Made by a program: the position numbers and the translations under genes. From a virus: a stretch of 64,000 nt of DNA. Positions 1-63,773 of this stretch are shown piece by piece. Under the pieces are notes generated by a model. The model was given only the letters and a program-made list of their open reading frames with translations, was not told the DNA's origin and ran no database searches. Where the stretch lies: positions 5,874 to 69,873 of IMG/VR virus record IMGVR_UViG_3300021399_000007, one strand, 5' to 3'. Numbering within the stretch: the first letter of the stretch is position 1; every line of letters starts with the position of its first letter.

Positions 1-2
1 TA

Positions 3-8169: not shown

Positions 8170-8231
8170 TCTTAATTATATTGTGAGGGTTAGATAAAAT
8201 TTATCTAACCCTCTTTTATATTGGAGAAAAA

Positions 8232-9149: not shown

Positions 9150-9379
9150 TGATTAAAGTTTTTACTTTAAATAAAAATAATAAAATTGAATTAACTAAAT
9201 AGGAATTACAAAAGTTATTAGATGAATCTTATTGGGAGGGCAGAAATTCAGTTTATATCTCACCCTCTTGGACATATGTTTCTCCAACTAAATGGACTTG
9301 TGATACCACAACAGAGCCATTATCAACAAACGCAGCAACCGCAACAATTATAGTAGGAGATAATAAAAATGAAATTTGA
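9149..9379 (+). CDS. hypothetical protein (1 in-frame TAG)
   Basis: ATG overlapping the upstream TAA. One TAG. Stop TGA at ~9377. Confidence 0.3.
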
Positions 9380-10256: not shown

Positions 10257-10323
10257 AAAATAAAATGTTATAATATAATTACAAGATGAAAATTATATTA
10301 TAAATGAAAAGGAAAAATCACAA

Positions 10324-10695
10324 ATGACTAAGAAAGAAGCCTTTATTGATTTTGTAAATTATTTTTTTGAAGATAATGATGTACGTTTTGAGAATGATGG
10401 AAAATTTCAATTAGCTAAAGAATTTTTTGAAGATTTTAAAAATAATAAAATCAAAAATTCAGGAGCCATGACAGAAAATGGTAAGAAGTTACTTTCTTGG
10501 ATGCAGGAGAATGTAGATACAATGACTAATCTCTTTACATCCAAAGAAGCAGCTGAAGCCCTTTTTACCTCAGGTCGCTCTATTGCAGGTTCTATGCGTA
10601 AATTGGTAAATGATGGATATGTGGAAAAAACTGGTAAAGATCCCGTCCAGTATTCTCTTACTGAAGCCGGTAAGAGTTATCAATTTGAAAAATAA
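10324..10695 (+). CDS. hypothetical protein
   Basis: ORF with an RBS and an upstream TGTTATAATATAA motif. Confidence 0.4.
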   Translation: MTKKEAFIDFVNYFFEDNDVRFENDGKFQLAKEFFEDFKNNKIKNSGAMTENGKKLLSWMQENVDTMTNLFTSKEAAEALFTSGRSIAGSMRKLVNDGYVEKTGKDPVQYSLTEAGKSYQFEK

Positions 10696-10754
10696 AAAAA
10701 TTTTTGTTATAATATAAAAGTAAAAGTTGATTAATAAAAAGGAGAAAAAATTAA

Positions 10755-11741: not shown

Positions 11742-11792
11742 TAAAAGGGGAATTAATCTTTCCCTTTCTTTTAAAGAAAGGATATTATAATT

Positions 11793-12833
11793 ATGGCAGA
11801 TATTGATATTTTTAGTATCCAACCCCATCAGGTAAGTCGTGATCTTCGCGGTTATTCTGTATTTTTCTACGGTGGTTGGAAAACTGGTAAAACTACAATT
11901 GCATCAAAGTTTCCTAATGCGCTTCTTCTTGCCTTTGAAAAAGGTTATAATGCGTTGGCGGGTGTTCGTCCACAGCCGATTAATTCTTGGGCAGAATTTA
12001 AGAAAGTTTTACGTCAGTTAAAGGATTCCCGCGCAAAAGAAATGTTCGAAACTATTATTGTAGATACTGCGGATATTGCTTATGACTATTGCACAAAATA
12101 TATTTGTGATAATGCGCAAAGATCTGATGGCGGATATGGAGTAGATTCTATTTCAGATATTCCATTCGGAAAAGGATATGGAATGGTTGAAAAGGAATTT
12201 GACACAGCTCTCCGCTCAATCGTTCAGATGGATTATGGTCTTGTAATTATTTCGCACGAAACTGATAAAACTTTCACAGATGAAGCAGGGAATCAGTTTA
12301 ATAAAATTGTTCCTACTCTTGATAAAAGGGCAAATAATATTTGTGCAAGAATGTGCGATATTGTTGGTTATTCAAGAGCAATCACTGATAAGGATGGGAA
12401 TCTTACCACTAAATTGTTTATGCGTGGAACTCCACGTTATGAAGCTGGTTCAAGGTTTAAATATACTCCAGATTTTATTGATTTTTCATATGATAATCTT
12501 GTAAATGCTATTGCGACTGCTATTGATAAACAAGCAGAAGAAGACGGCGCACAGTATTTTACAGATACTCGTAAGAATGCATATGAAGATACTACTAAAG
12601 ACCTTAATTTTGATGAATTAATGAAAAATTGCAATAATCTAATTAAGGAAATGATTGATAATAATTCTGAGGAAGTCTTTAAAGAGTTTTATCAACCTCG
12701 TATTGTTCAAATTACAGATAGGTATTTGGGCAGAGGCCAAAAAATGAGTCAATGTTCAAGAGAACAGGTAGAAGCTCTTTCCTTAATTTATGATGATCTC
12801 CTCTTACTTTCCAAAGAGACTGAATCAGAATGA
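11793..12833 (+). CDS. Sak4-like P-loop ATPase (RecA-superfamily recombination/replication ATPase)
   Basis: Walker A GGWKTGKTT and Walker B IIVDTAD. Confidence 0.55.
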   Translation: MADIDIFSIQPHQVSRDLRGYSVFFYGGWKTGKTTIASKFPNALLLAFEKGYNALAGVRPQPINSWAEFKKVLRQLKDSRAKEMFETIIVDTADIAYDYCTKYICDNAQRSDGGYGVDSISDIPFGKGYGMVEKEFDTALRSIVQMDYGLVIISHETDKTFTDEAGNQFNKIVPTLDKRANNICARMCDIVGYSRAITDKDGNLTTKLFMRGTPRYEAGSRFKYTPDFIDFSYDNLVNAIATAIDKQAEEDGAQYFTDTRKNAYEDTTKDLNFDELMKNCNNLIKEMIDNNSEEVFKEFYQPRIVQITDRYLGRGQKMSQCSREQVEALSLIYDDLLLLSKETESE

Positions 12834-12840
12834 TTATATA

Positions 12841-12905
12841 TTAAAGACTTGTCAAAAATTTATTTTTTTGACAAGTCTTCTTTTTTTTGTTATAATATAA
12901 TTAAA
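12841..12905 (+). promoter_or_regulatory. Terminator hairpin + TGTTATAATATAA middle-type promoter module (one example of a recurring module)
   Basis: GACTTGTCAAAAA..TTTTTGACAAGTC hairpin plus T-run, then TTTTTTGTTATAATATAATT. The same motif recurs at ~7666, 10267, 10705, 18405, 20352, 24396, 32704 and 50662. Confidence 0.5.
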
Positions 12906-12930
12906 GAATTTTTAAAAGGAGATATTGTAA

Positions 12931-13449
12931 ATGGCTCATCATTATGTAAAATGCTTATATTGCGGTGAACAATTTGATAGAGACACTGAACCAACAAAAC
13001 AAGTCTCCGCACGTAGATACGCTCATATAAAATGTTGGGAAGAACATATTGCTAATATGTCCCAAGAGGAAAGGGATATTGAAGCATTTTATGATTATAC
13101 AAAAAAACTATTTGGAGAAGATTATAATTATATTTTAACTAAAAAACTTGCTGAAAGATATGTAAAAGAAAATAATTATACTTATAGCGGAATGTTAAAA
13201 ACTCTTAAATGGTATTATGAAAAAGAAGGTAATTCTTTAGACAAAAGCAATGGTAGCATAGGAATCATTCCATACATTTATAAGCAAGCATTAAATTATT
13301 ATTATGCATTATATCAGGCACAATTAGTAAATAAAGAAAAAGATATCACTAACTTTACAATACCAAAAGAAAAGATAGTAGAAATTGAATCTCCACGTGT
13401 ATATGTGCGGCCGCCGCGTATGTGGTTAGAAGAGGAGGAAAATAAATGA
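12931..13449 (+). CDS. hypothetical Zn-finger protein
   Basis: CLYCGE...HIKCWEEH cysteine/histidine cluster. Confidence 0.4.
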   Translation: MAHHYVKCLYCGEQFDRDTEPTKQVSARRYAHIKCWEEHIANMSQEERDIEAFYDYTKKLFGEDYNYILTKKLAERYVKENNYTYSGMLKTLKWYYEKEGNSLDKSNGSIGIIPYIYKQALNYYYALYQAQLVNKEKDITNFTIPKEKIVEIESPRVYVRPPRMWLEEEENK

Positions 13450-14990
13450 GTTCAAAATATTATGATGTTTCTGCTTGTATGCAGGTAATAGGAGATGTAT
13501 TCATTAATCCTTCTCTCTTGGATTTAGAAGAAAAATATAAATTTCATGAAGAAGATTTTGTTCAAGAATTTCATAAAATTTTATTTGGATGTATTTATAA
13601 TCTTCATCAACTTGGAGCAAAACAAATATCAATAGAAGATATTGAAAAATATTTAGAGCAAAGACCAAAAAAATATGCAACTTATAAAATAAATAAAGGT
13701 TCTGAATATTTAGAAAATATTAAAGAAATGTGCCAACTTGCAGCATTTGATTATTATTATAATCGCATGAAGAAAATGACGCTTTTACGAATGTATAATA
13801 AAAATGTTGGAATGGATTTATCTTGGTTATACGATCCTGATAATGTATTAGATGTTAAAAAGAAAGAAGCACAAGAGTCATGGTTTGATAACACTCCAAT
13901 AAATGAAATTGCAAATACCATTAATGACAAAATTGATGAAATAAAAGCAAAATATATTGATAACTCAGAAGATGGAATTATTCAGGCGGGAGATGGAGCA
14001 TTAACATTACTTGAAAGATTAAAAACTAATCCAGAAATTGGTTATCCTCTTTATGGAAAATTAGTTAATGCAGTACATCGAGGAGCAAGATTAAAAAAGT
14101 TTTATTTGCGGTCAGCTGCTACTGGTGTCGGAAAGACGCGTTCAATGATAGCAGATGCCTGTTCCATTGCTTGTAATAAAATCTATAATCTTGAAACAAA
14201 ACAATGGGAAGATAATGGGACTCGTGAACCAACTCAATTTATTACAACAGAACAAGAAGAAGATGAGATTCAAACTATGATGATTGCTTTTCTGTCTGGA
14301 GTAAATGAAGATCATATTCTTGAAAATACATATACCGAAGGTGAATGGGAGCGAGTAAGCGAGGCCGCCACAATTCTTTCAAAAAGTCCTTTATATATTA
14401 AAAAATTACCAGATTTTTCACTTCAAGATATTGAAAATACAATTAAATTTGGTATTCGTCAATATGATGTGAGATATGTTTTTATGGATTATATTCATTC
14501 AAGTATGAAAATTCTTAGTGAAATTAGTTCAAAAGCTGGAGTAAAAGGATTACGAGAAGATAATATTCTTTTTATGATTAGCGTAAGAATTAAAGACTTA
14601 TGTAATCAATATGGTGTATTTGTTATGTCTGCAACTCAATTAAATGCAGATTATGTATCAGCTCAACAATATGACCAAAATCTACTTCGTGGAGCAAAAG
14701 CTATTGCAGATAAAATTGACTGTGGTATGATTATGCTTCAAGTCAGTCAAGATGATAGAGAAGCATTAAAAAATATTGTTAATTCTATGGGCATTGAAAT
14801 GCCTGACATAAAAATTTCTGTTTATAAAAATAGGCGCGGTCGCTATAAAGATATTCTTCTTTGGTGTAAATCTGATAGAGGAATATGTCGTATCAATCCT
14901 ATATTCGTAACTAATTATAATTATGAATTAATGGATATTGAAGATTTAAAAATTAAAGTAACTCCAAAAATTGAAAGTAGTGCATTTTAA
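13446..14990 (+). CDS. DnaB-like replicative DNA helicase
   Basis: 514 aa. RecA-like core with Walker A AATGVGKTR. Overlapping start coupled to the upstream gene. Confidence 0.7.
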   Translation: MSSKYYDVSACMQVIGDVFINPSLLDLEEKYKFHEEDFVQEFHKILFGCIYNLHQLGAKQISIEDIEKYLEQRPKKYATYKINKGSEYLENIKEMCQLAAFDYYYNRMKKMTLLRMYNKNVGMDLSWLYDPDNVLDVKKKEAQESWFDNTPINEIANTINDKIDEIKAKYIDNSEDGIIQAGDGALTLLERLKTNPEIGYPLYGKLVNAVHRGARLKKFYLRSAATGVGKTRSMIADACSIACNKIYNLETKQWEDNGTREPTQFITTEQEEDEIQTMMIAFLSGVNEDHILENTYTEGEWERVSEAATILSKSPLYIKKLPDFSLQDIENTIKFGIRQYDVRYVFMDYIHSSMKILSEISSKAGVKGLREDNILFMISVRIKDLCNQYGVFVMSATQLNADYVSAQQYDQNLLRGAKAIADKIDCGMIMLQVSQDDREALKNIVNSMGIEMPDIKISVYKNRRGRYKDILLWCKSDRGICRINPIFVTNYNYELMDIEDLKIKVTPKIESSAF

Positions 14991-17587: not shown

Positions 17588-18388
17588 ATGAATGCAAATC
17601 CGTGGAGATATAAAGAAGATAATAAAATAAAAGCACAAAAACAAATTAAATATATGGATGAGAATTTTGCTAATGAAACTGCGACGGCCATTGCTGACAC
17701 AAATATTTATACTGGTCCATTAAATAAAAATGACTGGACTAAAAATGGCTTTAATCCAGTTCCATATTCACAACTACTTGATATGGGTACTGTTGATGCA
17801 ATTTTTCATGTTCGAGAAGTCTTAGGAGAAGATAATAAAGAAATTAAAGTTGCTGCTCTCAATTTTGCATCATATAGAAATCCTGGCGGAAAATTTATTG
17901 ATGGTAGTAATGCTCAAGAAGAGTGTTTATGTCATGAATCTAATCTTTATAATATTTTAAGAAATTTCATATCATATTATAAAGAAAATAATTCTAAACC
18001 AAATAAAAATCTTTATACTGATAGAGCATTATATTCTCCAAATGTAATTTTTAATAGAGGAGATCATATAGTTAAAGCGGATGTGATTACTTGTGCCTCT
18101 CCAAATTGGACTGCCGCCCGAGAATGGAATGCTTCTCAAGTTGAAAATACTCTTGTATTAGCTCAACGTATTCAGTTTATTAAAGACATTGCAGAACTTG
18201 AAGCAGTTGATGTTCTTATTCTTGGAGCATGGGGATGTGGAGTATTCGGACAAAATCCAAAAACTGTTGCAAGATTATTTGATTTTATTTTTAGAGAAAG
18301 TGAAATTAAAAATATTGTATATGCCGTTCCTGGAGGATTAAATTCTGATAATTTTAAAGCCTTTGACGAATATATTAGAAAGAGTTGA
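17588..18388 (+). CDS. Macrodomain protein of the bacterial-type PARG (DUF2263) family
   Basis: PARG signature GG-X7-QEE (NPGGKFIDGSNAQEE) and diphosphate-binding loop GAWGCGVFGQN. Confidence 0.55.
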   Translation: MNANPWRYKEDNKIKAQKQIKYMDENFANETATAIADTNIYTGPLNKNDWTKNGFNPVPYSQLLDMGTVDAIFHVREVLGEDNKEIKVAALNFASYRNPGGKFIDGSNAQEECLCHESNLYNILRNFISYYKENNSKPNKNLYTDRALYSPNVIFNRGDHIVKADVITCASPNWTAAREWNASQVENTLVLAQRIQFIKDIAELEAVDVLILGAWGCGVFGQNPKTVARLFDFIFRESEIKNIVYAVPGGLNSDNFKAFDEYIRKS

Positions 18389-29360: not shown

Positions 29361-31647
29361 TATGATTTATGTAATCAAAAGAGATGGCAGAAAAATGCCA
29401 TTCAACACAGAAAAAATAAAAAATGCAATTTTGAAAGCCTTTAAAGCAGTAGATGGTTAGATTTCAGATTATGCAGAAACTAAAGCAGAAAATATTGCTA
29501 ACTATATTGAAGGTTACTGCGAAGAAGAACTTGAACCATTATCTATTGAAGAAATTCAAGATTTAGTAGAAAATGGTTTGATGTCAACAAAACGAAAAGA
29601 CGTTGCTAAAGCCTACATCAAATATCGTGAAAATCGCACAAGAGAAAGAAATTGGAATAATAACATGATGCGGGCAGCGCAAGAAAAACTCACCGGATCC
29701 CGTATCGATAATCAAAATGCTAATGTCGATGAACATTCATTTGGCGGGCGTCGTGGAGAATTTGATTCTGTTATTTCTAAACAATATGCTTTAGATAACT
29801 GTATGTCAAAGATGTCACGAGAAAATCATTTAAATAATGAAATTTATATTCATGATTTAGATGCATATGCGGTTGGTATGCACAACTGTCTTAGTATGCC
29901 ATTGGATGATTTGCTTGCAAATGGTTTCAACACTCGTCAAACGGATGTAAGACCCGCAAATTCAATTAATACAGCTTTTCAATTAGTTGCTGTTTTATTT
30001 CAGCTTCAAAGTTTACAACAATTTGGCGGAGTTTCAGCAACCCATCTCGACTGGACAATGGTTCCATATGTAAGAAAATCATTTTTCAAACATCTTAAGG
30101 ATGGTTGTCAATACATATTAAAAATAAATTTTGATAAATATGAAACAGTTTTTAATGGAACTGATCCAATAGATTTTGAAGGATATAAAACATTTCATGA
30201 AGCATATGATTATGCAATGGACATGACAAAAAAAGAATTAGAGCAAGCAGTTGAAGGAATGTATCATAATCTTAATACTTTACAAAGTAGAAGCGGAAAT
30301 CAGCTTCCTTTTACATCAATAAATTACGGGACCTGCACACTTCCTGAAGGGCGTATGGTTATTAAAGCCATATTAGAAGGTAGTATTAAAGGTGTTGGTA
30401 AATTTCATAAAACTCCAATCTTCCCTTGTGGTATTTTTCAAGTAATGAGCGGAGTCAATAAAGAGCCAGGAACACCAAATTATGATTTATTTAGATTAGC
30501 TCTTGAATCAACAGCAAAAAGATTATATCCAAATTATGCTAATGTTGATTGGAGCGGAAATGCTGGTTATGACCGGAATGATCCAACTACATATTTTTCA
30601 ACAATGGGATGTCGTACAGCCAATGGTTTCGATATAAATGCAGACCCAGGCGTAAATCCGCAACGAAAAGATGGACGCGGCAATATTTGTCCTGTAACTA
30701 TTATTCTTCCTACTATTGCAATGGAAGCAAAAAATGCTTCTGATGATTGGATTAAACAAAGTGAATTATTACATGGAGAATGGGCAGGTATTCAATCTGA
30801 ACTTTATATAGATAAGTTTATGACACTTTTGGATAAAAAAATCCACGAAGCTAAAGATATGCTTCTTGAAAGATTTGAATATATTTGTTCGCAAGACCCA
30901 TCTTCTGCAAAATTTATGTGGGAAAATCATACTATGTTAGGTTATAAACCAGAAGAAGGAATTCGTTCTGCCCTTAAACATGGCACAATAGTAATTGGTC
31001 AATTAGGTCTTGCAGAATGTTTACAAATTCTTATTGGTAAGGATCATACAACAGAAGAAGGTATGGAATTAGCTAAACACATAGAACAATTATTTAAAAA
31101 TAGATGCGCCGAATTTAAGCAGCAATATAAACTTAATTTTGGTGTTTATTATACTCCTGCCGAGAATCTTTGTTATACAGCGATGAAAAAATTCCAAGAT
31201 AAATATGGAAAAATTCCAAATGTAAGTGATAAAGAATTTTTCACTAATAGTATGCATGTTCCAGTTTGGAAAGAAATTGATCCGTTTACAAAGATTGATA
31301 TTGAAAGTCAGCTAACTGGATATTCTTCTGCGGGGTGTATTACTTATGTAGAATTAGACAGCGGAATTTTACATAATATTGATGCATTAGAACAAATTGT
31401 AAATTATGCTATGGATAAAGATATTCCATATTTTGCATTAAATATTCCAAATGATTTATGTTTAAATTGCGGTTACACTGGAGAAATCAATGACGAATGT
31501 CCTATGTGTAAAAGCAAAAATATCCAAAGACTTCGTAGAGTAACTGGTTATTTAACAGGAGATTATAAGACCGCATTTAATCTTGGGAAACAGCAAGAGA
31601 CAGAAATGAGATTTAAACATTCAACATTATTAAGAGGATATAAATAA
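29361..31647 (+). CDS. nrdD: Anaerobic ribonucleoside-triphosphate reductase NrdD with N-terminal ATP-cone (1 in-frame TAG at ~29457)
   Basis: ATP-cone (MIYVIKRDGRKMPFNTEKI) upstream. Glycyl-radical motif RRVTGYL and a C-terminal Cys4 Zn site. TAG joins the ATP-cone to track ORF 29578..31647. Confidence 0.85.
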
Positions 31648-31649
31648 AA

Positions 31650-32210
31650 ATGATAACAAATATTAAAAAATCTATTTTAGCAGGTATTCTTATTGGATTA
31701 GGTGTTTTAATTAATTCTCAATCAGATTATCCGCCTTTAGGAGCATTATTATTTAGTTTTGGGCTATTAACTATAATTCAAATGCAACTAAATTTATATA
31801 CTGGTAAAATTGGTTATTTCACTCAAATGCACGAATGGAAATTTTTAATTACCGTACTATTATTTAATTGCATTGGAATTGCGGCGACCGTAGGTTTATA
31901 TGCACTCGGTAACCAGAACTATTCAAGTATTATATCTGCGGCTGCCGCTACAAAATTCGCAAAACCCGCATTAACGTTATTTATTAACGCCTGCTTTTGT
32001 GGGGCACTAATTCATTTTGCTGTAAAAAATAAAATAACTATATTAACAATTTTTGCAGTTATGATTTTCATCCTTATCGGAGCAGAACACTGTATAGCTG
32101 ATTTCCCATACCTTTTATTCAATTTATCTCCTATTAATATTTTAAAATTTATTGCAATTATTTTTGGTAATTCAATAGGCGCAATATTAATTGAAAGGTT
32201 AAATAAATAA
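31650..32210 (+). CDS. integral membrane protein (about 6 TM)
   Basis: Hydrophobic throughout. Sits between nrdD and nrdG. Confidence 0.4.
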   Translation: MITNIKKSILAGILIGLGVLINSQSDYPPLGALLFSFGLLTIIQMQLNLYTGKIGYFTQMHEWKFLITVLLFNCIGIAATVGLYALGNQNYSSIISAAAATKFAKPALTLFINACFCGALIHFAVKNKITILTIFAVMIFILIGAEHCIADFPYLLFNLSPINILKFIAIIFGNSIGAILIERLNK

Positions 32211-44238: not shown

Positions 44239-44415
44239 AATAAAATTCTCCTTTCATTCCCTCATATTTATATTAAAAATTTAGGCATTTTCTTTAACGG
44301 CTTTTGTCCAAAAAATTTTTTAGCTCATTGATTCTTTATTTTGTAAAGTTTTTGTTGATTTTTCATCATCAGCTTTTTCCGGCCTGCCCGCGCCATCTCC
44401 ACTTTCTGAACCACC

Positions 44416-45888
44416 CTACTTGCGATTAAGAACTTCCGCATTCATAGTGCTAGACATTAATGGAGGAATAAATACATTAACCAAATCAAGAATATCATTT
44501 TCAAAATAAGCAGTAGCCAATACCGCACTTTGTGCTTGACCCAATGCTATTTGCGGCAACATTTTAGAATAACCTAATTGAGTATGTTCCTTATATTGTT
44601 TAGCTAAATCTTTATAATTATAGATTGTAGTAGGAAGAATTTGTGCTCTATAAGTAACCTTTTTTGGACTTCGATTATAAGGTATTAATAGAGTATTTAA
44701 AAATGTTTCAAACTGTTGAATCAAATTCCACATTGAAGCTTCATCATTTAAGATAGATTTTTCAAGAGCAATGTTACCATCTGTGTTAAATTGCATTTGT
44801 GAAACACCTGCTTCATTATAAACAGTTCGTTCCACTTTTTCCAAATCATCTGTAGTAGTTGATGTCTTATTATCAGCCATGTCTGCGACTTCAACATCCG
44901 CAAAAGTAGTTAAAACATCAATTCCAATAGCCTTAGATAGCATTTGAACCGCATTGTTATGAAGTTGTTGCGCTTCATCTACATCAAATACTAAATCACC
45001 ATTTTTATCAATAGGCATTTTCTGAATGATAATTTTTAACAATTGTTGTTGCATTTTGCGGCGGTCGAGGTCTTGTGCCGCATCCAAATCAATAATTGCA
45101 GGAATTACCGCAATAAAAGGAGGAAAATCCTCCCCATTTAAATTGAATTTAATAACAGAACCAATTTCAAGTAAATACCACCCAGATTCATCTCCAGGAA
45201 AATCAGGCTTTAATTTTCCTTGTCTATACAGTTTATATCCTTTTTCAAATTCTGGTGGAAATACTTTTAACATTCTTGCAAGTTGTTCTGCATTAGCAAA
45301 CATATCATTAAAATATTTCATATTAAATTCAACCGCAGGATGACCATTTACCATAAAACGCGATCTACAATATTTTGGTGGCAATTCTTGTACAATAACA
45401 GTTCCATTTTGTGCAATTAAATAACCATAATAACAGCCATTTTTCATTACTTTTAATGCAACTTCTCCAAAAAATTTCTTCGCTTCAAAATTATCCAAAT
45501 ATGCTAAAACTTTATTAAAGCCCTCAAGAAGTTTTTCAGGTTTTATTGCTTCAGTATAGTAGGGTGTAACAAGCCAATCATATCTATACATATATGCCAT
45601 ATAACGGCACAATCTTTGATAAATACCGCTAATTTTATAAAAATAATTAGAGATATCTCTCATTTTATCAAGGTCGTTATAATAAATTGCTCTTAAAACC
45701 TGTTCTTTATCTGCTAATTGTGGATTTACTTTACGAAGGTCACCTAATTTAAGAATCGCATCAGATATTGACTTTACTCCAACTTTAATTTTTGCAAAGT
45801 CAATAGGCACATAACCAGTAGCCTAATTAGGAATTTGGTAATCTTCAGTTCCAATCATGTTAAAGCCTTTTTTCTTTATCTAAGCCAT
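44416..45888 (-). CDS. Portal protein (by size and position), 2 in-frame TAG near the N-terminus
   Basis: Frame extends upstream of the track start through 2 TAG to ATG at ~45888 (MAQIKKKGFNMIGTEDYQIPNQATGYVPIDF...). Lies directly downstream of the large terminase. Confidence 0.5.
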
Positions 45889-45948
45889 TCGATTAATCAA
45901 CTTTAGATACCTCTCCTTCTTTAATATCCAGCCGCCTCTAATATATAA

Positions 45949-48074
45949 TCATAATTTATTCTTGCTTCATCCCAATAGGGAATGATTACTAAATTGATCC
46001 CATGATCTCGACAATATTCTCTTTTTTTCATATCGTTGTATTGTTGTTTTCTTAAACCATTATATCCACCAAATTTTTCTTTAGCTTCATAATGTTGAAT
46101 TCCTTGAAATTCAATGAGAAAATCAATATTATGCTAATCGTCGAAAACCGCAAAATCAAATCTTAGCGGGCGGCCTGTATTACTTACTAAATCTGGAAAA
46201 GAGTATTCTTCTGCGAACTCTAATCCAGACTCTTGTAGAATTTCTTCTATTTTAATTTCTCCTCTAGATGCTCGCATATTTTTTCTCCTTCACTATATTA
46301 TATAAAAATTTTATCTATAAAATTAATAAACTTTGACCTTAAGCTGGAGTAAAAAATAAAAAGTCAGAAATATTACGTTTTTTCTTCTTTTTATTTAATT
46401 CCTATTCATAACGAATATAATATAATCCATATATAAAAGCAGAAAATTTATCTTTCTTAATACTTCTATTGCTCTGTTTCAGAATAATATTAACTCCCTA
46501 ATTTTCTTCTACAAGATTTAACATTTGTTCTTTCAAAATCGAGGTTAATATAAAAGGTCGTAAATAATCATTTCTTTCATCAATATTCATATTTTGACCT
46601 TGTTTAGTTGACATTAATTTAGTTTTTGCCAAGCCTTCATCAATTAAAAATCTAATCTTCCCACTAAACATCTGAGTTTGTGCATAACTATATGCCTATG
46701 TATTTATAGGCGCATTAGCTTTAATTAAAAACAAAATATCCCGCTCTGTCTCAGGAGTAACAAATTTTTTATATTCTGGATATTCATCTGTATTATAAAC
46801 ACCAAAAGGAGGTAAATATTCACCATCATCTGTATCTTGCGCTTTAACTAAATAATCAATAAGCCCAACTCCTAGACCATTAGCATCAACTGCAATTCTA
46901 CGCGGCCTATATTTATAATACAAATGTTTTATATGAATACATTGAGTTTCAAAGTGTTCTGCATCATAAGTATAAATATTTACAAGAGTCTTATGAGCTG
47001 CCCCTTGAACTTGCGGCGTAACTTTAAAAACACAAATCTCTGTAGTACATCCCACACGTCCAACGTCTATACCAAATACATAATAAGCATTTTTTGAAGA
47101 CCGCCCGCTATATTCATACTATGGTTGTAATAATACTCTGTATTTATCAAATTTTTCAGAAGAAAAGAATGCATTTTCAACATCGCCAGACCAAATACTA
47201 CGATATTCTCTATTGAATGATTCATCATTAAAAGTCCCTTGTAATCTTAATTGCTATACAAAATCTTCATCCAATAGACCAGAAATCACAGGTGTTTCAT
47301 AAGTTCCGCCCATAATCATATATTCTTCTGGATCAATGATAGAATTAATTAAAATTTCAATTAATTTGTGATAAGCAAAACTATTTTTCCATCCCGCTGT
47401 GGTTATATAAATTTGTGATTTATTAACATTCTCCTCTTTGTGGCGGCTACCATCTGAAAGTCTTCTATCAACGTTTGTAGTAGGAATAATAACTTCATTT
47501 AGAATATCACCATCAATTAATACGCACTCTTCCATTAATCCACCAGTACGACGTTGACCTCTAGATGACTGCCTCGCCGCTAAGATATCAATAGTAGAGC
47601 CATTCTTAAATACATATTTAACGTTATCTTTTGATTTAGTAGATACACCGCGATCCCAGTTAATTTCATTATTTAAACCAGGTATGAGTTTACATATTTC
47701 CTAAATTTTAGCAATAGTAATAGAAGCTGCCTGCTCCTTTCCGCCTGTAGTTACAAATAAATGTGAATTAGGATATAAAATGCATCTAATCATTAATGCC
47801 ATCATTGATAAAAAAGACTTAGAATATGCGCGCGGGAATGTTGCGTACACATACCGGTGCCGCATCACAATTCTAAGAAAAATTCTTTGATAAAATAAAA
47901 AATTAAATGTGCTATCTTTTCCTTTTATAAAATCCACAAAAATATCAGGATATTCCCTAAAATAAGCAATTAAATCTCTTAATCCATCTATGTCTTTCAA
48001 TAGCCGCTATTCTGATAAACCTTGTTTTTTATACTATCTGTCGGAGGATAACTGAAGTAATTCTTTTAAATTCA
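45949..48074 (-). CDS. Terminase large subunit with multiple in-frame TAG (track fragments 47701..48000, 47254..47535, 46696..47055)
   Basis: Start MNLKELLQLSSDR(TAG)YKKQGLSE(TAG)RLLKDIDGLRD... at ~48074. One minus-strand frame carries the three fragments, separated only by TAG. Deviant Walker-A-like PRAYSKSF. TGA stop at ~45949. Confidence 0.55.
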
Positions 48075-49409
48075 TTCGTGTTTAAGCCTCCTATTTATGT
48101 ATTCTTCTTCAATTAAATCATCATTTAAGTCATCATCATGATCTTTCATGTGATTTAAGGATTTTTTATAATTAGTAAAATCATCATCATCTAATTCCAC
48201 ATTATCTAATCCTTTAGCTTTTGCATCTTTTTTATCTTTTTTCATTTCATTTGAAATGCGTTTATCTTGCAAATATTTTTCAATTTCTTGCGCTAATGAT
48301 TTATCTTCATAAATTAAGTTTTTATTATATGCTTTTAAATCTAAAATAATTTGATCAACAATATCTTGCGGCTAATTGCAATGATAACGTGGAATTTCTC
48401 CGCTATGAGCCTCAACAAAATCAACAATAGCAGAAGCAGAATCAATTGTATCAGCATCTTTATCTTTATTCTGCGCCTATGTAAATTTTGCGGACTTCAT
48501 CATAGCATCATAGACACGCGATAATTTCTGGTAAGAATCGATGTCGCCGCAATCAATAGCCTCATTCATTTTGAGGGATGTCTTGCAAATCATTTTTAAT
48601 GTATCAATACGTGCCGCCCCTTGAATATCAAATGAATTCATAAATTCATTATATAATTGTTCAAGAGCAACCCACTGACTGGGTTTATAAAGTCGGCCCC
48701 ATTTAACCGCAAGATACATTTTATCATCATCATCTAAATTCGCGCCAGGATCAACTATTTCGCTTTCCGCCATAAAATTTTGTTCTCTAAATGGATTTTT
48801 TGCTTGATTAAGCGCCTAGGCGTATGACTATGGTTGACCGTAAACCTGGAATATTTGGCCTAAATGTTCTCCTGTAATAGCATCCCCCCACCGCGGTAAT
48901 TCCTTATTTTGAGTTTCTGTGCTAACAAGAGTCTGATACTAGGCGGGGGATATTTTTCCTTCGCTCAATTTAACTTTTAACGAGGCCTAATACCGCGCCT
49001 TCTCTTCTGCTTCGGCCTTTTCTTTTTTAGCCTTTTCCGCGTCCATTTCTTCTTGAATTTTTTTGGTATCCGCATATCCATATTTGCTCCATTGTTTGAG
49101 CTTCATTTTAGCAAGATATTTACCAATAACAGACATTCCATTCATTTTATAAGGGTCTTTCGCAAACGCCTTATCTCTTAATACATTCCATTCAGTAGGA
49201 ATATAAGGAACATCCATTTTTTCAAGAATCCATTCAAAAGTACTAGGATCAAAATTATCTATATGCGCGGTTAAGCATGGTTTGCAAATTTCGCATTTAC
49301 TGCCATCTTTATATGTATAAAAATTTATTTGTGCAATTCTTTTGCCACACCGCTCGCATTGACATTTACCATTTGCGTCTTCTTGCTGTCCTTTTAATTT
49401 TTGCGCCAT
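48072..49409 (-). CDS. Zn-ribbon protein, possible small terminase subunit; about 7 in-frame TAG
   Basis: Track ORFs 48987..49409, 48477..48773 and 48072..48272 are in one minus frame, joined only by TAG. N-terminal CxxC...CxxC. Immediately upstream of the large terminase with an overlapping stop/start. Confidence 0.35.
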
Positions 49410-49444
49410 AAAAGTCTCCTTTCTTCATTTTTTATTTTTAAAAA

Positions 49445-50562
49445 AATTCTTTAATGAATTAAAGACTTTTGTCCTTTTTCTTATTTCTACAACATTTACA
49501 AATACTATACCAACCATCCTTTGAAGTTCTATTTCTTGTAAAAAAATAAGGATGAGCAAGTTTTACCTAATGACAGCGCGAACATTTTTTCCATTTTCCT
49601 TTTTCTTCTATTGTATAATGCCAAATTATCCAATCTTCTTTTGCTTTTTCAGAAATAATTTTTGGGATTTTTTTCCGCCACACTGAAGATAAATATTCAA
49701 TAGAATAAGTGATATTATATTTATTTTTTATCTTTTCCGCAATTTCTTTATTTTGAAGTCCATCTATTTTATAAATCATAATATCATATAAAATAGGATA
49801 ATCATCTTTCAATGCTTTTTCTATAAGATTATCTAGATCCTCCATTAAGTACCACCAATCATCGTCAAAATGGCCCCAAACGTCTTCTTTTAATTTAGAA
49901 TAATTACACAATAGACAACAAACATGCTATGGATTAAATAGTGATACTAAACAGTTACTTTCTGGGTCAAAATTTTCATTTATTTTTATTTTTTCATTTA
50001 AATTTATTTGATTAGCGCTTTTGGTTATCCGCATCATAGTAATGGGCGGTTTGTAGATACTTTTTAATACATATTGATCTTGTCTAGCTTCAATTAATTG
50101 TTTTGTAAGTAAGAATTTTTGTTTTCCCTTAGCCGCCTTTTGCCGCGCCTCTATTTTTTTAATTTCTTCTCTTAATTCTTTTAATCCTGGTATAGTTATT
50201 ATATCTTCTTCTGTGATTTGTATTTTTGGAACTAATAAAATGTTTTTATCGCCGCCAGTCATAAAGTTATAAATGCCATCCTCGCCATTCTATAACTTGG
50301 AAACTAGACCTTCATAGGAGATTTCTCTTTTGTTGATAGTTACCATCCTATTGTCTGTTAAGACTTTCCGCTCTTTTTTATTATCATAAGTTTCTGTTAA
50401 GTATTTTGTAAGCTATTCTAAATAATAAGGAGTAAGTTTTTCTGAGGGAATATTATTAACAATTTCATGTACTATTTTATTACGCTATTGAGGGTCAATA
50501 ATAGTATAGTCCAAGGTGGGATAAGGTCTTTTAGACTACATATTTTTTAACTCTTTTTCCAT
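49445..50562 (-). CDS. Late-operon leader protein with a sigma-70 region-4-like HTH (candidate late transcription regulator / sigma-like factor), about 6 in-frame TAG
   Basis: RBS GCAGAAAGGAG and ATG at ~50562. One frame joins track ORFs 49927..50262 and 49567..49911 through TAGs. DIMIYKIDGLQNKEIAEKIKNKYNITYSIEYLSSVWRKKIPKI resembles sigma region 4. C-terminal Cys cluster (CSRCH..CKCC). Confidence 0.4.
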
Positions 50563-52131: not shown

Positions 52132-52361
52132 AAAATGAAAAAATGTGGGAAAATATAAGTTTGCAAGAAATAATTAGGATGGCTTTTCCGCGGGGATGGG
52201 ACAAAATAAAGTATTGGAGGCGAAAACCGCAGGCTTATACTTTAGAAAAGGCTCTTGAAACTTTGCAAATAATGTTAGCTACACAAGATATTAATTTAAT
52301 GATAGATTGGGCGTATAATGAATTTATTCCACCTTACGCGGTGCATAGTATAAAAAGATGA
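52128..52361 (+). CDS. hypothetical protein
   Basis: ORF overlapping the upstream stop. Confidence 0.35.
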   Translation: MKNEKMWENISLQEIIRMAFPRGWDKIKYWRRKPQAYTLEKALETLQIMLATQDINLMIDWAYNEFIPPYAVHSIKR

Positions 52362-52744
52362 GATTTATAGCAGAAGATAATCCAAATTTATATATTGATG
52401 TAGAAAATTATAGTGAATTAGAGAAAAAAATAAAAGAATTTGGAAATCCTAATTATAATTATGAAGTTATTTTTGAATTTCATGATCCTCGAATTGCGGG
52501 AAGAATAAAAGCAAAAAAAAAGGGGATAAGTATGGAAAGAATAATTAAAGGACGTTTTAAAAATAATGGAGAATATAAAGAAGAAGATAAATATACTCCT
52601 ATTTTAAATAATGGTGCAGTTGTAGGTTTTATTGAATCAGTAGAAAAAGAAAATATAAATATTATATTGTGGGGAAAATGTATTTCTAAAGAATATTTAT
52701 ACGGTGAATCAGAGAATATTCTTTGTTCAATTTCTTTTTGTTAA
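52358..52744 (+). CDS. hypothetical protein
   Basis: ORF. Last gene before the non-coding repeat region. Confidence 0.4.
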   Translation: MRFIAEDNPNLYIDVENYSELEKKIKEFGNPNYNYEVIFEFHDPRIAGRIKAKKKGISMERIIKGRFKNNGEYKEEDKYTPILNNGAVVGFIESVEKENINIILWGKCISKEYLYGESENILCSISFC

Positions 52745-53590
52745 GAGGGGAAGTCATTTCCTCGATTTAGAGAGGGAATCGCTTTTTCGATTCAAAAATA
52801 CTTTTGGAGAGAGAAATGTGGAGCCCAAACCCTTTTATTAAATTCAAAAAATTTTTTTCACAAAATATACCCCCCGTAATACTGACTACCTTGACTAGAT
52901 TTCGTGAGGCCTGAATGAGATAGGGCGGAAATAGGTCCCTACAAAAATATTCACAGCCTTGATTAAAACAAACAATTAAATAAAAATAATTACAAAGATG
53001 ATGAAATAAAAATAAAAAAGTTTCATCATCTTTTTGTTTGAAAGAAAAATAAAACACAATAGTTATTATTTTAATAAACGTGCTGCTGGGCGGCAAACGC
53101 TCGTTTGTCGCCGAGGTTCTTCATGGAGTAGGGTTGCAGGTTTTATTCGACCAATTCTGAGAAATCGGCAAAGTTGGTCATTTCCTAGAATTAGGTAAAT
53201 TTACCTAAAAGTGAAAAATTGGTAAAGTTCTTGTTAAAAAATTAACGAAGTTAGAGGCCAGCGACTCTTGTTAGTCGCAATGAACTTTGACCAATTTTTA
53301 TTTTTTGGCTTTAATAAAATGAGTTTACTAATTGGCAAAGGAACAGGATCAGATAGTAAACAGACTGTACTAATTAAACAATGTAACGAATACTTCAATA
53401 CACTAAAGTGTTAGAGAACTAAAGCAACAGCAGACGAAAGACACACAAAGCGACTAAGTAACAACTGTTTACTATATTAATAAGAACTAATGTAGAAAGA
53501 TTGTTAAAAAATTAACGAAGTAATGATACTTACAGACTTAAAAACACTAAAAAAGTAAATTCATTTTACAATATATTTTTTTCAAAAAAG
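52745..53590. repeat. ~850 bp non-coding region with iteron-like direct/inverted repeats and strong hairpins (candidate origin of replication or regulatory hub)
   Basis: Repeats AAATCGGCAAAGTTGGTCA / AAAATTGGTAAAGTTCTTGTT / inverted AACTTTGACCAATTTT at 53155-53300. Hairpin GGCGGCAAACGCTCGTTTGTCGCC at ~53087. Two TTGTTAAAAAATTAACGAAG boxes at 53230 and 53505. Confidence 0.45.
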
Positions 53591-53989: not shown

Positions 53990-54430
53990 ATGACAAGAAC
54001 AATCTTCTTCGACATGGACGGAACAATCGCAGACCTTTACAAAGTAGACGGATGGCTGACCGACCTTATCAACAAAGATGTAAGACCTTACAGAGAAGCA
54101 AAAGTAATGCACAACATGCAAGTACTTGCAAGACTTCTTAACAGACTTCAGAAGAAAGGAAACAAAGTAGCAATCATTAGTTGGTTGGCAAAAAACAGCA
54201 CAGAAGAATATGACACAAGAGTAGCGCAGACTAAAAGAGAGTGGTTGAAAAAACATCTCACAAGCGTTAACTTCGATGAAATCCACATTGTAAAATACGG
54301 AACAAGAAAAGAAACATTCATCCACACAGAAAACGACATTCTCTTTGACGATGAAGAACAAAACAGAAACAACTGGACGGGAAAAGCTTACAACGTGAAT
54401 AACATCATTGAAACACTGAAGAGCCTTTGA
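53990..54430 (+). CDS. HAD-superfamily phosphatase (5'(3')-deoxyribonucleotidase-like), paralogue 1
   Basis: FFDMDGTIAD motif I and DILFDDEE motif. Promoter TTGACAAATCCGGTTTAATAGATTATACTAT. Terminator AGAGCCTTTGAAAAGGCTCT. Confidence 0.6.
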   Translation: MTRTIFFDMDGTIADLYKVDGWLTDLINKDVRPYREAKVMHNMQVLARLLNRLQKKGNKVAIISWLAKNSTEEYDTRVAQTKREWLKKHLTSVNFDEIHIVKYGTRKETFIHTENDILFDDEEQNRNNWTGKAYNVNNIIETLKSL

Positions 54431-54703
54431 AAAGGCTCTTTTTTAATGCGGAATGTTAGTTATGACTAATTCTTGCGGCGAGCGAGATTGTTAAAAAATT
54501 AACAAACGTCTGCGGGCGCTGGGGGCCGAAAAATTTTATCACAGGTGGGTCGCAGTTGTCAAGACAGAAAAATGCACAAAATAGTTAATTATTAGGTTTC
54601 CCATTTTGTGCATTATTTTTTTCAAAATACGTTGACTTTTCCGGTCAAATAGCTTATAATTAAATCATCAAAGAGAGATACACAAAAGAAAGGAGAAAAC
54701 ATC

Positions 54704-55422: not shown

Positions 55423-55585
55423 TCCTCATCTTTTTTTATGCGCGGCGCGCTGGTGGCCGCACCAGCGCGTTTTTCCATTATACCATACCCATCGGGTTTT
55501 GTCAATTGACATTTTGCACAAATTTTAATGCTAAAAATATCCTAAAATTCGTCATTCTTTCAAAAGTTAAAAATCGGTAGATTTC

Positions 55586-55690
55586 TTGTTAAAAATTTAA
55601 CAATCGACTAAAAGTGAAAAATCGGCAAAGTTCTTGTTAAACTTTTAACAATCTACCTACCACTCCTTGTTAAATTCTTAACAAGGGAAA
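55586..55690. promoter_or_regulatory. Array of three tandem palindromic operator-like sites (TTGTTAAA-N4-TTTAACAA) upstream of the 55745 promoter
   Basis: TTCTTGTTAAAAATTTAACAATCG, TTCTTGTTAAACTTTTAACAATCT and CCTTGTTAAATTCTTAACAAGGG, spaced about 45 and 33 bp apart. A perfect palindrome TGTCAATTGACA sits at ~55500. Confidence 0.5.
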
Positions 55691-55803: not shown

Positions 55804-56265
55804 ATGACTACCAACACCGCACTCCACATCAATCTGATTGACCGCTACAACGCAGTTGCTTATACCCATGAGTATGTATGGGGCTTCACCTACAAAAAAA
55901 ATGTCTATATGACAATCACCGACGCAACTGTGATGCCGTTCGTTACCTGCCTTGACAAGGCAAGCCGTGGTGCTGGATATGCACTTCGCTTCTGCCCCAA
56001 CACTCAGCAGAAAGTGGCCCTGCTTCCATATGCGACCCTCCTTTGCTCTGAAGCTTACTTCAATGAAGTAGTAGCCGACAGCAAGTACAATAAAGGCGAG
56101 ATTTTTGAAAAAATGGTCACCGAACATTTTGGACAGACCTGGGAAAAGGATAATGTTCCCTTTACTGAAGATGGTGATATCACAGTCGATGGTACTGCAT
56201 ATCAAATCAAGTTTCAGAAAGCCACCTTCTGTAACGAAAAGAGCATAGCCAACCTTGAAAAATAA
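55804..56265 (+). CDS. hypothetical accessory protein
   Basis: Promoter GTTGACAACCGGAGTAATAAGGCTTATAAT. RBS AAGGAAGGGGG. The track ORF starts earlier at 55744, inside the promoter. Confidence 0.5.
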   Translation: MTTNTALHINLIDRYNAVAYTHEYVWGFTYKKNVYMTITDATVMPFVTCLDKASRGAGYALRFCPNTQQKVALLPYATLLCSEAYFNEVVADSKYNKGEIFEKMVTEHFGQTWEKDNVPFTEDGDITVDGTAYQIKFQKATFCNEKSIANLEK

Positions 56266-59443: not shown

Positions 59444-59824
59444 ATGTATACTATGACAAAACTTACCTACGCTATGGCTATCGACTTCGCAACCGCAATC
59501 ATCACCAATGGAACTGCTGATTTCAACGGCTTCTCCGCTGATGAGTACCTTGAGAAGCTGGAGTCCCTCAAGGCTTCCCTTGCAAGACGCAACGGAAGTG
59601 AGAGAAAACCCACCAAGACCCAGCAGGCAAATGAGGGTCTGAAAGAAGATATGTGGGCTTACGTTTCTGAGAATGGTGCAAAGCGTGCCAATGAGGTCGC
59701 TGAACACTTCGCTATCAGCGGTCAGAAGGCTTCGGCTCTGCTGAACGCACTGGTCAAGGAAGGTCGCCTTGACAAGTTCACCGAGAAGCGTGTGACCTAC
59801 TTCAGGGTTGCTGAGGGGATGTAA
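59444..59824 (+). CDS. KPTKTQ-motif winged-helix-like small protein, paralogue A
   Basis: Shares the KPTKTQ..N(D/E)G(F/L)K motif and a C-terminal wHTH-like segment with 62777 and 63774. Promoter CTTGACAACTGAATAAGGAACTGATATAAT. Confidence 0.5.
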   Translation: MYTMTKLTYAMAIDFATAIITNGTADFNGFSADEYLEKLESLKASLARRNGSERKPTKTQQANEGLKEDMWAYVSENGAKRANEVAEHFAISGQKASALLNALVKEGRLDKFTEKRVTYFRVAEGM

Positions 59825-60874: not shown

Positions 60875-61312
60875 ATGACGATTTGGTTTGACATGGATGG
60901 AACAATTGCTAATCTCTACGGAGTTCAAAACTGGCTTGACTATCTGATGGCAAGCGACCCCACCCCTTACGCAATCGCTAAACCGCTTCTGAGACTGAAC
61001 GCACTGGCAAGAGTTCTAAATAATCTTCAGCGCAAGGGTTACAAAGTCGGAGTCATCAGCTGGCTTGCTAAAAACAGCACCGCCGACTATGACGAAGCGG
61101 TCACCAAAGCAAAGATTGATTGGTTGACTAAACATCTTGCAAGCGTTACTTTCGATGAAATCAACATCGTAAGATACGGAACTCCAAAACATCTGTTCGC
61201 TACCTGCGAAGCCGACATTCTTTTCGATGATGAGGAAAAGAACCGCAACGAATGGACAGGAAAAGCGTTCGATGTGAATAACATTCTTGAAGTGCTGAAG
61301 GGACTGGATTAA
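60875..61312 (+). CDS. HAD-superfamily phosphatase, paralogue 2 (GC-richer codon usage than paralogue 1)
   Basis: WFDMDGTIAN and DILFDDEE motifs. Collinear with 53990..54430 at the protein level. Terminator GGACTGGATTAATCCAGTCC. Confidence 0.6.
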   Translation: MTIWFDMDGTIANLYGVQNWLDYLMASDPTPYAIAKPLLRLNALARVLNNLQRKGYKVGVISWLAKNSTADYDEAVTKAKIDWLTKHLASVTFDEINIVRYGTPKHLFATCEADILFDDEEKNRNEWTGKAFDVNNILEVLKGLD

Positions 61313-62188: not shown

Positions 62189-62490
62189 AAACAAGGCAGA
62201 GGATTTTTCCTCTGTCTTTTCCAGCGGGGCGCGAGCCTTCGGTTCGCGCCGAAATTTCCATTGTACCACACCCCGCACTTTTTGTCAAGCAAAATCTGCA
62301 AAAAAACTACACAAAATTATATCCCAAAATTAGTGCAACATTCCGATGTTGACTTTCTAAAAAACTTATATTATAATATGTTTACAAGGTAAGGGAAGGG
62401 CAACACAATCGAGTAGGATGGTCGGCAGAGCCTAGCGCCTTCTGATTATTTGAATAGACAGATAGCCACTTCAAAAAAAATAAAAAAACT

Positions 62491-62776: not shown

Positions 62777-63136
62777 ATGACGAAGAGAGAAATGTTCACC
62801 AAAATCCGCACTGCTGTTGCTAACGATGCTGAGATGGTCGCCTTCATTGACCACGAAATCGAGTTGCTGAACCGCAAGTCCGCAACCCCGAAGAAACCCA
62901 CCAAGACGCAGGTGGAAAACGATGGTTTCAAGGCTGAAATCCTTGAAACGTTGGCTCAGGTCGATGCGCCTGTGACCATCAAGGAACTGTGCGGTGCCTG
63001 TGAAGCTCTCGCAGGTCTTTCCAATCAGCGTGTGACTCACATGCTGACTGACCTCCGCAAGGATGGCAAGGTTGCTCGGTCCTATGTTAAGAAGGTTGCC
63101 TACTTCGCTCTTGGTTCTGAGGACGAGGTAGAGTAA
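62777..63136 (+). CDS. KPTKTQ-motif winged-helix-like small protein, paralogue B
   Basis: MTKREMFTKIRTAVANDAEMVAFIDHEIELL...KPTKTQVENDGFKAEI is near-identical in its N-terminal half to 63774. Confidence 0.5.
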   Translation: MTKREMFTKIRTAVANDAEMVAFIDHEIELLNRKSATPKKPTKTQVENDGFKAEILETLAQVDAPVTIKELCGACEALAGLSNQRVTHMLTDLRKDGKVARSYVKKVAYFALGSEDEVE

Positions 63137-63773
63137 GAAAAAGGGTTTGCGGTTATCCCTTAAAACCGCATTTTATGGGGGATTTATAGTGAAGCCTGAG
63201 GTGACAAGTAGTTGCGTAATAGCCCTTGTGTAATTCCTGGGAAGATGTGGTGCAAGTCCCATTCCCCCAACTCTACTGACAATATTCGTTCCTCCTTTCT
63301 TTGAAAAGACACCATCTTTTTAGATGGTGTCTTTTTCATTTGGCGCCACGCGACCGGTCGGCCGCGGGGCGAAACTTCCATTATATCATACTCTGGGCTT
63401 TTTGTCAAGTGAAAATCTGCACAAACATCTCGCCGCAAAATTCCCAAAATTAGTGCAATATTCCGACATTGACTTTTTCAAAAAAATTTATTATAATATA
63501 TTTACAAGGTAAGGGAAGTCAACCGCTAAAAAAACTTAAAAAGTTAAAAAAAGTTCTTGACAAAACAAAAGCCTTGTGCTATAATAATCTTGTTGGGTGG
63601 TAGAAGCAACATAAAATAAAAGATACCCGTGGAGTTGATGGTACGATAGTCTCCGAAAAAAAACCATCAAAAAATTAAAAAATCTATTGACAAATCAAAA
63701 ATCTTATGTTAAAATAAGTACATAAGATAAAACAAAAACAAATCAATCAATCAAAAGAAAGAGGTGTTTATTA

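Follow-up and report, generated by a model that had tools for sequence, protein, structure and literature searches.

A non-coding junction with putative Rex-type operator sites ahead of the promoter array of an uncultivated rumen phage

The uncultivated virus record IMGVR_UViG_3300021399_000007 of the IMG/VR database contains a stretch of 64,000 nt (positions 5,874 to 69,873 of that record; hereafter referred to as the window) with a gene-free gap at positions 52745-53590, which would serve as a spacer between a block of small plus-strand genes (50.7-52.7 kb) and a promoter array of about 14 kb. We consider it somewhat more probable than its opposite that this gap constitutes a transcriptional boundary and a regulatory spacer furnished with operator sites of the type recognised by the repressor Rex. 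Its most likely role would be transcriptional insulation combined with protein-mediated control, or titration, at 18-bp palindromes. A preliminary description of this DNA had named a replication origin (ori), a packaging site (pac) and a regulatory hub as options for the gap, and the last of these is supported by a structurally conserved terminator and by operator-type palindromes that recur in the next gaps of the array and in relatives.

The gap is a genuine non-coding junction. The earlier statement that it contains no credible open reading frame (ORF) holds on both strands, also when TAG, TGA or TAA is read as a sense codon, a provision that matters because the late genes of the phage carry in-frame TAG codons. 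Homologues of the C-terminal 70 amino acids encoded by the upstream ORF led us to a dozen related contigs, all of which possess a gene-free gap of 0.76-1.1 kb at the equivalent place. A conserved 23-nt pattern from the left block of the gap yielded 8 IMG/VR and 35 metagenome loci (loci are given below by L numbers), of which L058 is a chance match; about 40 distinct versions are represented. The gap is composite: positions 52745-53150 are conserved in about 40 related contigs of rumen and gut phages and positions 53150-53590 are strain-specific, alignments to relatives being limited to the left ~400 nt at 67-86% identity. When 52745-53590 was compared by blastn with 50,697 phage records, no match was obtained.

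At about position 52750, both the organisation and the composition of the DNA change, as far as organisation is concerned in agreement with what had been noted before. The GC skew drops from values of +0.3 to +0.6 to about 0, the AT skew climbs to +0.3 to +0.47, and the GC content rises from 30% to 35-45%; in the array, a GC content of 35-45% contrasts with 30% in the rest, the GC skew is close to 0 and the AT skew reaches as much as +0.47. A strand switch that had been placed at the gap was an error, because both flanking genes are on the plus strand and the divergent switch lies at 50562/50681.

In the left half of the gap, a junction module consisting of repeats that resemble a ribosome-binding site (RBS), a 60-nt segment, a terminator and a GC-rich hairpin (Table 1) would indicate where the early array begins; the module is shared by about 40 related contigs. 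The predicted intrinsic terminator, which would end transcription of the upstream small-gene block, sits 250 nt past the stop codon at position 52744. A hairpin with a T-run is present at an equal offset in 29 of 38 relatives versus 2% of shuffled sequences, and its stem occurs in eight distinct sequences, including double changes (G-C to A-T and others). It is this frequency among relatives, together with the persistence across eight stem sequences, on which we base the assignment of 52994-53040 as an intrinsic terminator.

A perfect GC-rich hairpin had previously been reported at about 53087-53110. The hairpin is real, only its position (53089-53112) and its perfection required correction, since its 10-bp stem contains one G.T pair; the near-identical strain L048 has a perfect version of it. 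Under strict criteria, 22 of 38 relatives have such a hairpin at the equivalent offset, compared with 2% of shuffled sequences; its arms occur in 10 distinct versions, and it lies ~50-90 nt past the terminator, or ~230 nt in the L038 group. In loci L046, L054 and L056, the hairpin is followed by an intact minus-strand promoter (TTGACA-17-TATAAT), which is degenerate in 52745-53590. We infer that the GC hairpin may be the relic of a module in which a hairpin is joined to a reverse-facing consensus promoter; this module is also represented three times in the array of the window, as repeat family D16. A gene for a non-coding RNA, either an RNA derived from the 3' untranslated region and ending at the terminator or a minus-strand RNA running from the GC hairpin antisense to the conserved block, is an improbable explanation of these features. 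The conserved sequence upstream of the terminator and the perfect reverse promoter that fires into the GC hairpin in L046, L054 and L056 would agree with it, but Rfam matches were absent from the window and nine relatives (gathering or E-value thresholds), the conserved 160 nt gave no consensus structure and 0 compensatory pairs for both candidate helices tried, and the reverse promoter has decayed in the window.

The 18-bp palindrome TTGTTAA-N4-TTAAC(A/G)A occurs in the window six times with at most one mismatch, four of the copies being perfect; 0.20 copies are expected, and none of 100 shuffled sequences reached six. All six are situated in intergenic gaps between 53231 and 55684 (Table 1). 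In sequence, the palindrome of the window is identical to the operator consensus published for the Rex protein of Clostridiaceae, TTGTTAANNNNTTAACAA (taken from Ravcheev et al., 2012, by way of PMC5367854 and PMC9600882). With the Rex operators of Firmicutes, it has in common the 18-bp dyad, the 4-nt spacer, which is A/T-rich, and the choice between G and T at position 5 to the exclusion of A and C. The putative Rex sites studied here differ from those operators in being carried on phage DNA, in forming arrays of up to 24 copies and in lying upstream of promoters and not over them.

Relatives carry the same palindrome in the same place. Four copies are found in the homologous gap of L038, L040, L045, L050, L068 and L069, and the homologous gap of L046, L054 and L056 contains 6-7 boxes at no more than one mismatch and 8-10 at up to two, located on repeat units of ~55-65 bp. 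In all of these relatives, the boxes are situated past the conserved module and ahead of the first early promoter; no palindrome was detected on the upstream side of the junction, where up to 52 kb were examined. Because the flanking sequences differ between relatives, the palindrome itself is the conserved unit, and it is the only element of the right half that is common beyond the present strain.

In other Firmicutes, the canonical Rex box is TTGTGAANNNNTTCACAA. We scanned IMG/VR for viral stretches with two boxes 25-55 nt apart, using an equally A/T-rich A form and a C form as controls. The T form of Clostridiaceae Rex (TTGTTAA-N4-TTAACAA) was present as tandem boxes in 62 viral stretches and the canonical G form (TTGTGAA-N4-TTCACAA) in 21, versus 0 for the A form and 3 for the C form. 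Counts at no more than one mismatch over the T-form stretches were 379 (T), 47 (G), 1 (A) and 8 (C), the G count probably being inflated because hybrid T/G sites fit both patterns with one mismatch. At position 5, the box has T or G, with A and C all but absent. Many of the T-form stretches contain 5-24 boxes, numerous consensus promoters and homologues of the array genes of the window; their boxes reach a density of 24 per 12 kb and are scattered over other intergenic gaps of the array. Several G-form stretches (L147, L149, L150, L154, L155) are clear relatives that share array genes. In the IMG/VR loci L147-L157 (e.g., 3300021399_000103), up to eight array genes of the window are shared, canonical boxes occur at up to 9 per 10 kb, and the TTGTTAA form is entirely missing.

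Among 429 unique boxes, none was centred within -60 to +19 nt of the start of a consensus -35 element and 86 were found 20-120 nt upstream of it: the boxes are enriched 20-120 nt upstream of the -35 element and never lie over a consensus promoter core. Such a location is atypical for a classical repressor; it fits a regulator bound upstream, an insulator between cassettes, or decoys that spare the phage promoters.

In the mechanism that we favour, transcription arriving from the left would be stopped at the terminator, after which the GC hairpin follows, and a dimeric winged-helix protein would bind the palindromes. The likeliest binder would be the NADH/NAD+-sensing repressor Rex of the host, because a search with a query validated on PDB 2VT2 (E = 3e-140) detected no Rex homologue in the window or in the 170 loci fetched. 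Binding of Rex could couple the output of the early promoters, or read-through, to the redox state of the host cell; or Rex could be titrated by the multiple sites present on phage DNA as it replicates, so that fermentative genes of the host become derepressed. Decoy sites for transcription factors have been described (PMC8599769, PMC3322331), and the boxes resemble them in being multicopy, in lying clear of promoters and in their capacity to titrate a scarce factor, a parallel that is purely hypothetical here.

Exploitation of host regulators by phages is known for LexA and a few others; a literature search found no report of Rex boxes or operators on phage DNA. We put forward, tentatively and with slightly less than even confidence, that arrays of host Rex operators, in the one of the two Rex dialects that suits the host, are a feature of the early-gene region in a broad group of uncultivated phages from rumen and gut that have low-GC Firmicutes as hosts. 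Such arrays would either make early transcription dependent on the NADH/NAD+ ratio of the host or serve as multicopy decoys that draw Rex off the host chromosome during infection and thereby derepress genes for fermentation and NADH recycling. If host Rex does bind these arrays, the development of an anaerobe's phage would be wired to the redox charge of the cell, or host fermentation would be reprogrammed through DNA sites alone.

Several observations weigh against Rex as the binder. In characterised cases, and unlike the boxes described here, a Rex operator usually overlaps the promoter that is repressed. Both palindromes inside 52745-53590 carry a mismatch (ACGA for ACAA). Close relatives (the L011 and L018 groups) are without a box at no more than one mismatch in up to 20 kb, and Rex-type sites are thus dispensable for this type of phage. 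Relatives among GTDB genomes are stand-alone contigs, four of them of ~130-140 kb, in bins of metagenome-assembled genomes with discordant taxonomy, the labels being Bacilli, Clostridia and others. Finally, the array itself encodes possible binders, namely three paralogous small winged-helix proteins (59453-59824, 62777-63136, 63773-64114) with weak matches to FaeA and FeoC, which are candidate DNA-binding proteins.

The palindromes might be operators of a phage-encoded regulator, a switch protein bound upstream of early promoters and comparable to p4 of phi29 or to MrpR of SPbeta with its SPBRE element, and their likeness to the Rex box would be mimicry or coincidence; we regard this possibility as rather doubtful. 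Besides the winged-helix paralogues, the position of the boxes upstream of promoters rather than over them speaks for it, and so does the example of the distant relative SPbeta (homologues of YonF, YonG, YorF and YorH), which uses a repressor of its own on a repeated element. In the published description of this system (PMC10516654), SPBRE is a 15-bp element, present at about 10 early promoters, to which the master repressor MrpR (YopR) binds. The two systems have in common a short repeated element at many early-gene promoters of a large SPbeta-like phage and differ in that the phage motif studied here equals a host operator consensus. Several findings argue against a phage-encoded binder. Tandem arrays in viral contigs are limited to the two published Rex dialects (T and G at position 5) and do not extend to A or C. 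A gene whose presence tracks the boxes was not found in the short flanks examined, and an MrpR homologue is absent from the 73 kb searched by tblastn with SPbeta YopR, in which only YonF gave a match. In sequence, the winged-helix proteins bear no resemblance to Rex.

In the right half of the gap, the preliminary description had recognised iteron-like repeats, and these could be confirmed as sequence features. The 15-mer AAAATYGGYAAAGTT is present at 53161, 53215 and 55618 at no more than one mismatch (0.18 expected; 0 of 100 shuffles reached three), and a copy in the inverted sense, with an indel, lies at 53282-53299. The 45-nt segment said to be shared with 55600-55645 corresponds to a 42-45-nt unit (53205-53246) that recurs at 55608-55649 with 88% identity; a third copy of this unit, which we refer to as family D17, is located at 55560-55601 (83% identity). 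The inverted copy pairs with 53215-53232 and thereby forms a large imperfect inverted repeat flanking the palindrome. It is because of such local inverted duplications that the plus strand of the gap region attains a strong fold score (z = -5.8). The 15-mer is limited to the present strain and one near-identical strain, and the exact 24-nt repeat pattern is absent from IMG/VR. The right 450 nt are non-conserved filler made of locally duplicated units.

In the equivalent space, the L011 and L018 groups have a promoter, an RBS, an ORF of 42-62 codons and low-complexity DNA, and the L023 and L025 groups have long inverted repeats built on TTGTGCA. These last repeats are near-perfect, with arms of 23-29 bp and many copies of TTGTGCA(A/T), in L023 (6650-7100), L025 (1100-1450), L036 and L043. 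The same TTGTGCA(A/T) motif is present in the window at 54574-54614, and related copies (TTGCACAAA) are found at the ends of two repeated hairpin/promoter modules.

One could regard the right half as evolutionary debris, that is, as a decayed first cassette with local duplicates in which the terminator is the only functional element of the gap; we judge this to be unlikely. It would account for the remnants (TTGGTC...CTAGAATT) that the window shows where relatives hold a promoter, an RBS and the 42-62-codon ORF, for the strain-specific 15-mer, for the similarity of 53330-53480 to degenerate copies of the repeat unit of L046 and L056, and for the mismatch in each of the two in-gap boxes. It would not account for the identity of these two boxes over 21 nt (GTTAAAAAATTAACGAAGT), for their distances from the first array promoter, which are typical of the site family, or for the perfect copies within 2.5 kb downstream.

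An iteron-type replication origin, in which the repeated motifs would bind a phage initiator beside easily unwound A/T-rich DNA, has little probability in our view. Iteron origins are known from lambda ori and plasmid oriV, and sopC of the F plasmid is a centromere array. With these systems the gap shares repeated dyad sites in units of ~50-65 bp within a non-coding region, most clearly so in L046 and L056; it differs from them in that the sites are dispersed over many gaps and absent from close relatives, and in that a compositional signature of an origin is missing. In support of an origin one can cite the long non-coding module boundary with direct and inverted repeats and the strong fold score, as well as the presence of 6-7 boxes on repeat units in the gap of L046, L054 and L056. 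Relatives with an equal replication module (polymerase 63-76% identical) differ wholly in the sequence of the right half, however, and the palindrome is scattered through other gaps of the array. Where an iteron origin would have at least three regularly spaced direct repeats of a 17-22-bp motif in one orientation, the repeats of the gap are few, unevenly spaced and partly inverted: two are direct (53161, 53215), and one is inverted with an indel (53282). Where iterons would be conserved among phages with a common replication machinery, the right half is unalignable. The GC skew of the window, calculated as a check on the earlier ori proposal, has no sign change at the gap. A DnaA-like box was not found between 50033 and 54066, a replication-initiator domain was not found in the flanking genes scanned, and scans of window proteins revealed neither an initiator nor a ParA/ParB-type domain. 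The proposal of an origin is left without support, and the supposed iterons would be strain-specific duplications in a regulatory spacer, a sobering outcome for the ori/pac question.

Likewise unsupported is the packaging site. The terminase gene lies 5 kb away, and contig ends are not significantly enriched: nine fall within 500 nt upstream of the gap and five downstream, with ~4.8 expected in each case. That the gap is a pac site, or that it bounds a long terminal repeat holding the early array in the manner of T5 or SPO1, is a very remote prospect. The pre-early or host-takeover regions of T5 and SPO1 lie in terminal repeats, and the array resembles such regions, down to two 5'-nucleotidase-like genes like T5 dmp; the slight surplus of contig starts upstream (nine versus ~4.8) would point in the same direction. 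This surplus is not significant and could be explained by copy-number variation of tandem repeats, however, and several large contigs span the region internally.

Table 1. Features in and next to the gap at 52745-53590 (positions in the window).
Feature	Position	Strand	Remarks
Two RBS-like repeat units, ~36 nt	52745..52813	+	First unit degenerate; second AATCGCTTTTTCGATTCAAAAATACTTTTGGAGAGAG, ending in GGAGAGAG
Conserved ~60-nt segment, readable as a 32-codon ORF (MWSPNPFIKFKKFFSQNIPP...)	52816..52914	+	GGAGAGAG as putative RBS; invariant C-run (Pro-Pro)
Predicted intrinsic terminator	52994..53040	+	14-bp A/T-rich stem, 12-nt loop (stem-loop 52994-53033), then TTGTTTG
GC-rich hairpin GGCGGCAAAC-GCTC-GTTTGTCGCC	53089..53112		One G.T pair, no T-run
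Iteron-like 15-mer GAAATCGGCAAAGTT	53161..53175	+	Within inverted repeat GACCAA...TTGGTC
42-nt repeat unit, family D17	53205..53246	+	15-mer AAAATTGGTAAAGTT and left part of palindrome; copies at 55560 and 55608
Rex-type palindrome TTGTTAAAAAATTAACGA	53231..53248		One mismatch to TTGTTAANNNNTTAACAA; start 362 nt upstream of the -35 element of P1
Small hairpin GCGACT-N6-AGTCGC, then inverted 15-mer copy (GAACTTTGACCAATTTTT)	53261..53299		
Second Rex-type palindrome TTGTTAAAAAATTAACGA	53501..53518		Centre 83 nt upstream of the -35 element of P1, typical distance class
First array promoter, P1	53570..53669	+	UP-element-like A/T tract; TTGACT at 53593, 17-nt spacer, TATAAT to 53621; RBS; ATG at 53670
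Perfect Rex-type palindrome	54488..54505		Next long intergenic gap, outside 52745-53590
Two D17 units and three perfect Rex-type palindromes (55586, 55634, 55667)	55560..55684		Upstream of the promoter at 55744; outside 52745-53590

Among the smaller elements of the junction module, the RBS-like repeats are present in one to four units per relative, each ending in GGAGAG. Since the genes upstream of them differ among relatives, the units belong to the junction module. boxB-like antitermination hairpins were considered for these 36-nt repeats and rejected, as hairpin potential is not kept across relatives. A helix between a Shine-Dalgarno and an anti-Shine-Dalgarno sequence in the conserved block, hinted at by an alignment of nine sequences, was likewise discarded after RNAalifold had predicted no pairs for 32 sequences. 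The 32-codon ORF keeps its N-terminal 20 codons in 39 variants and varies in length from 10 to 41 codons; its codon-position entropy (0.51/0.55/0.68) constitutes a weak coding signal. With weak codon periodicity and variable length, 52816-52914 makes a weak candidate for a real gene. The upstream 128-aa ORF (52358-52744) is probably two genes: its homologues all comprise 70-77 amino acids and match only the C-terminal half, which has an RBS and an ATG start codon of its own at 52532.

The array to the right extends from 53593 to ~66997 (the part beyond 64000 was read in L007) and contains at least 26 near-consensus promoters of the sigma-70 type (TTGACA-17-TATAAT), counted with a strict pattern and all on the plus strand. 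Its cassettes consist of a promoter and a small gene, usually with a terminator after it, and amount to ~14 kb in all. By analogy, the array appears to be organised like an early, host-takeover region. Like the PeSL cassettes of T4-type phages, which consist of a promoter and a stem-loop, and like the modules that SPO1 and T5 use for pre-early functions or host takeover, the array has numerous small genes, every one of them served by a separate strong sigma-70 promoter and terminator, repeats that would permit duplication and shuffling of cassettes, and a 5'-nucleotidase-like gene (dmp in T5). It differs from the SPO1 and T5 modules in that no evidence for a location in a terminal repeat was found; furthermore, we know of no counterpart of the Rex-type palindromes in SPO1, T5 or T4-type PeSL systems.

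Scans of 30 small neighbouring proteins against Pfam and PHROGs yielded only NT5C-like and weak winged-helix matches. The NT5C-like matches concern paralogous genes for 5'(3')-deoxyribonucleotidases of the HAD family at 53990-54430 and 60875-61312, which are kept in most relatives; the pre-early dmp gene of T5 encodes an enzyme of the 5'-nucleotidase type. A 153-aa protein (55804-56265) encoded downstream of the triple box was considered as an autoregulator and rejected, because its homologues also occur in relatives without boxes; it matches no family. The array further contains a repeat module, D16, in which a GC-rich terminator hairpin is followed by a minus-strand TTGACA-17-TATAAT promoter, with copies at 55473, 62256 and 63376 (spans 55444-55522, ~62230-62305 and ~63350-63425). 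The reverse promoter of D16 would read back through the hairpin and give rise to an antisense RNA into the preceding gene; the preceding proteins are unlike type I toxins.

The phage is uncultivated and originates from sheep and cattle rumen metagenomes. Scaffold_233 of the European Nucleotide Archive assembly ERZ28612961 is 100% identical to the window over 43693-64000 and 4289-14469 and 99.95% identical over 1-4223, and several shorter contigs are also identical; window positions 14470-43692 are missing from this scaffold. The window, with a GC content of ~30%, carries a replication module on the plus strand (1-34 kb) that comprises genes for a DNA polymerase of 1318 amino acids, a DnaB-like helicase, a primase, a type II topoisomerase, an NAD-dependent ligase and NrdD, and structural genes (portal, terminase, YonG-like protein) on the minus strand (34-50.6 kb). 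Pfam matches to YonG_N, YonD_N, YorF and YorH, together with a YonF homologue of 24% identity, lead us to regard it as a distant relative of SPbeta.

The late genes on the minus strand (44320-50562; portal, a 118-aa protein, terminase, the YonG-like protein and a 367-aa protein) contain one to eight in-frame TAG codons each, which public gene calls read through, and the phage consequently appears to be TAG-recoded; ARAGORN detected no tRNA, a suppressor tRNA for TAG included, in the window or ~9 kb past it. Within the replication module, the gene for a GyrB-like topoisomerase subunit (531-2613) is interrupted by an endonuclease ORF, for which public calls list a GIY-YIG protein, and this arrangement suggests an intron or a homing element. 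A protein with a microbial-type poly(ADP-ribose) glycohydrolase (PARG) domain is encoded at 17588-18388. Finally, the gene for NrdD, the anaerobic ribonucleotide reductase, is followed by a gene of the formate/nitrite-transporter family (31650-32210; both within 29578-32210), a suggestive pairing, as class III reductases use formate as their reductant.

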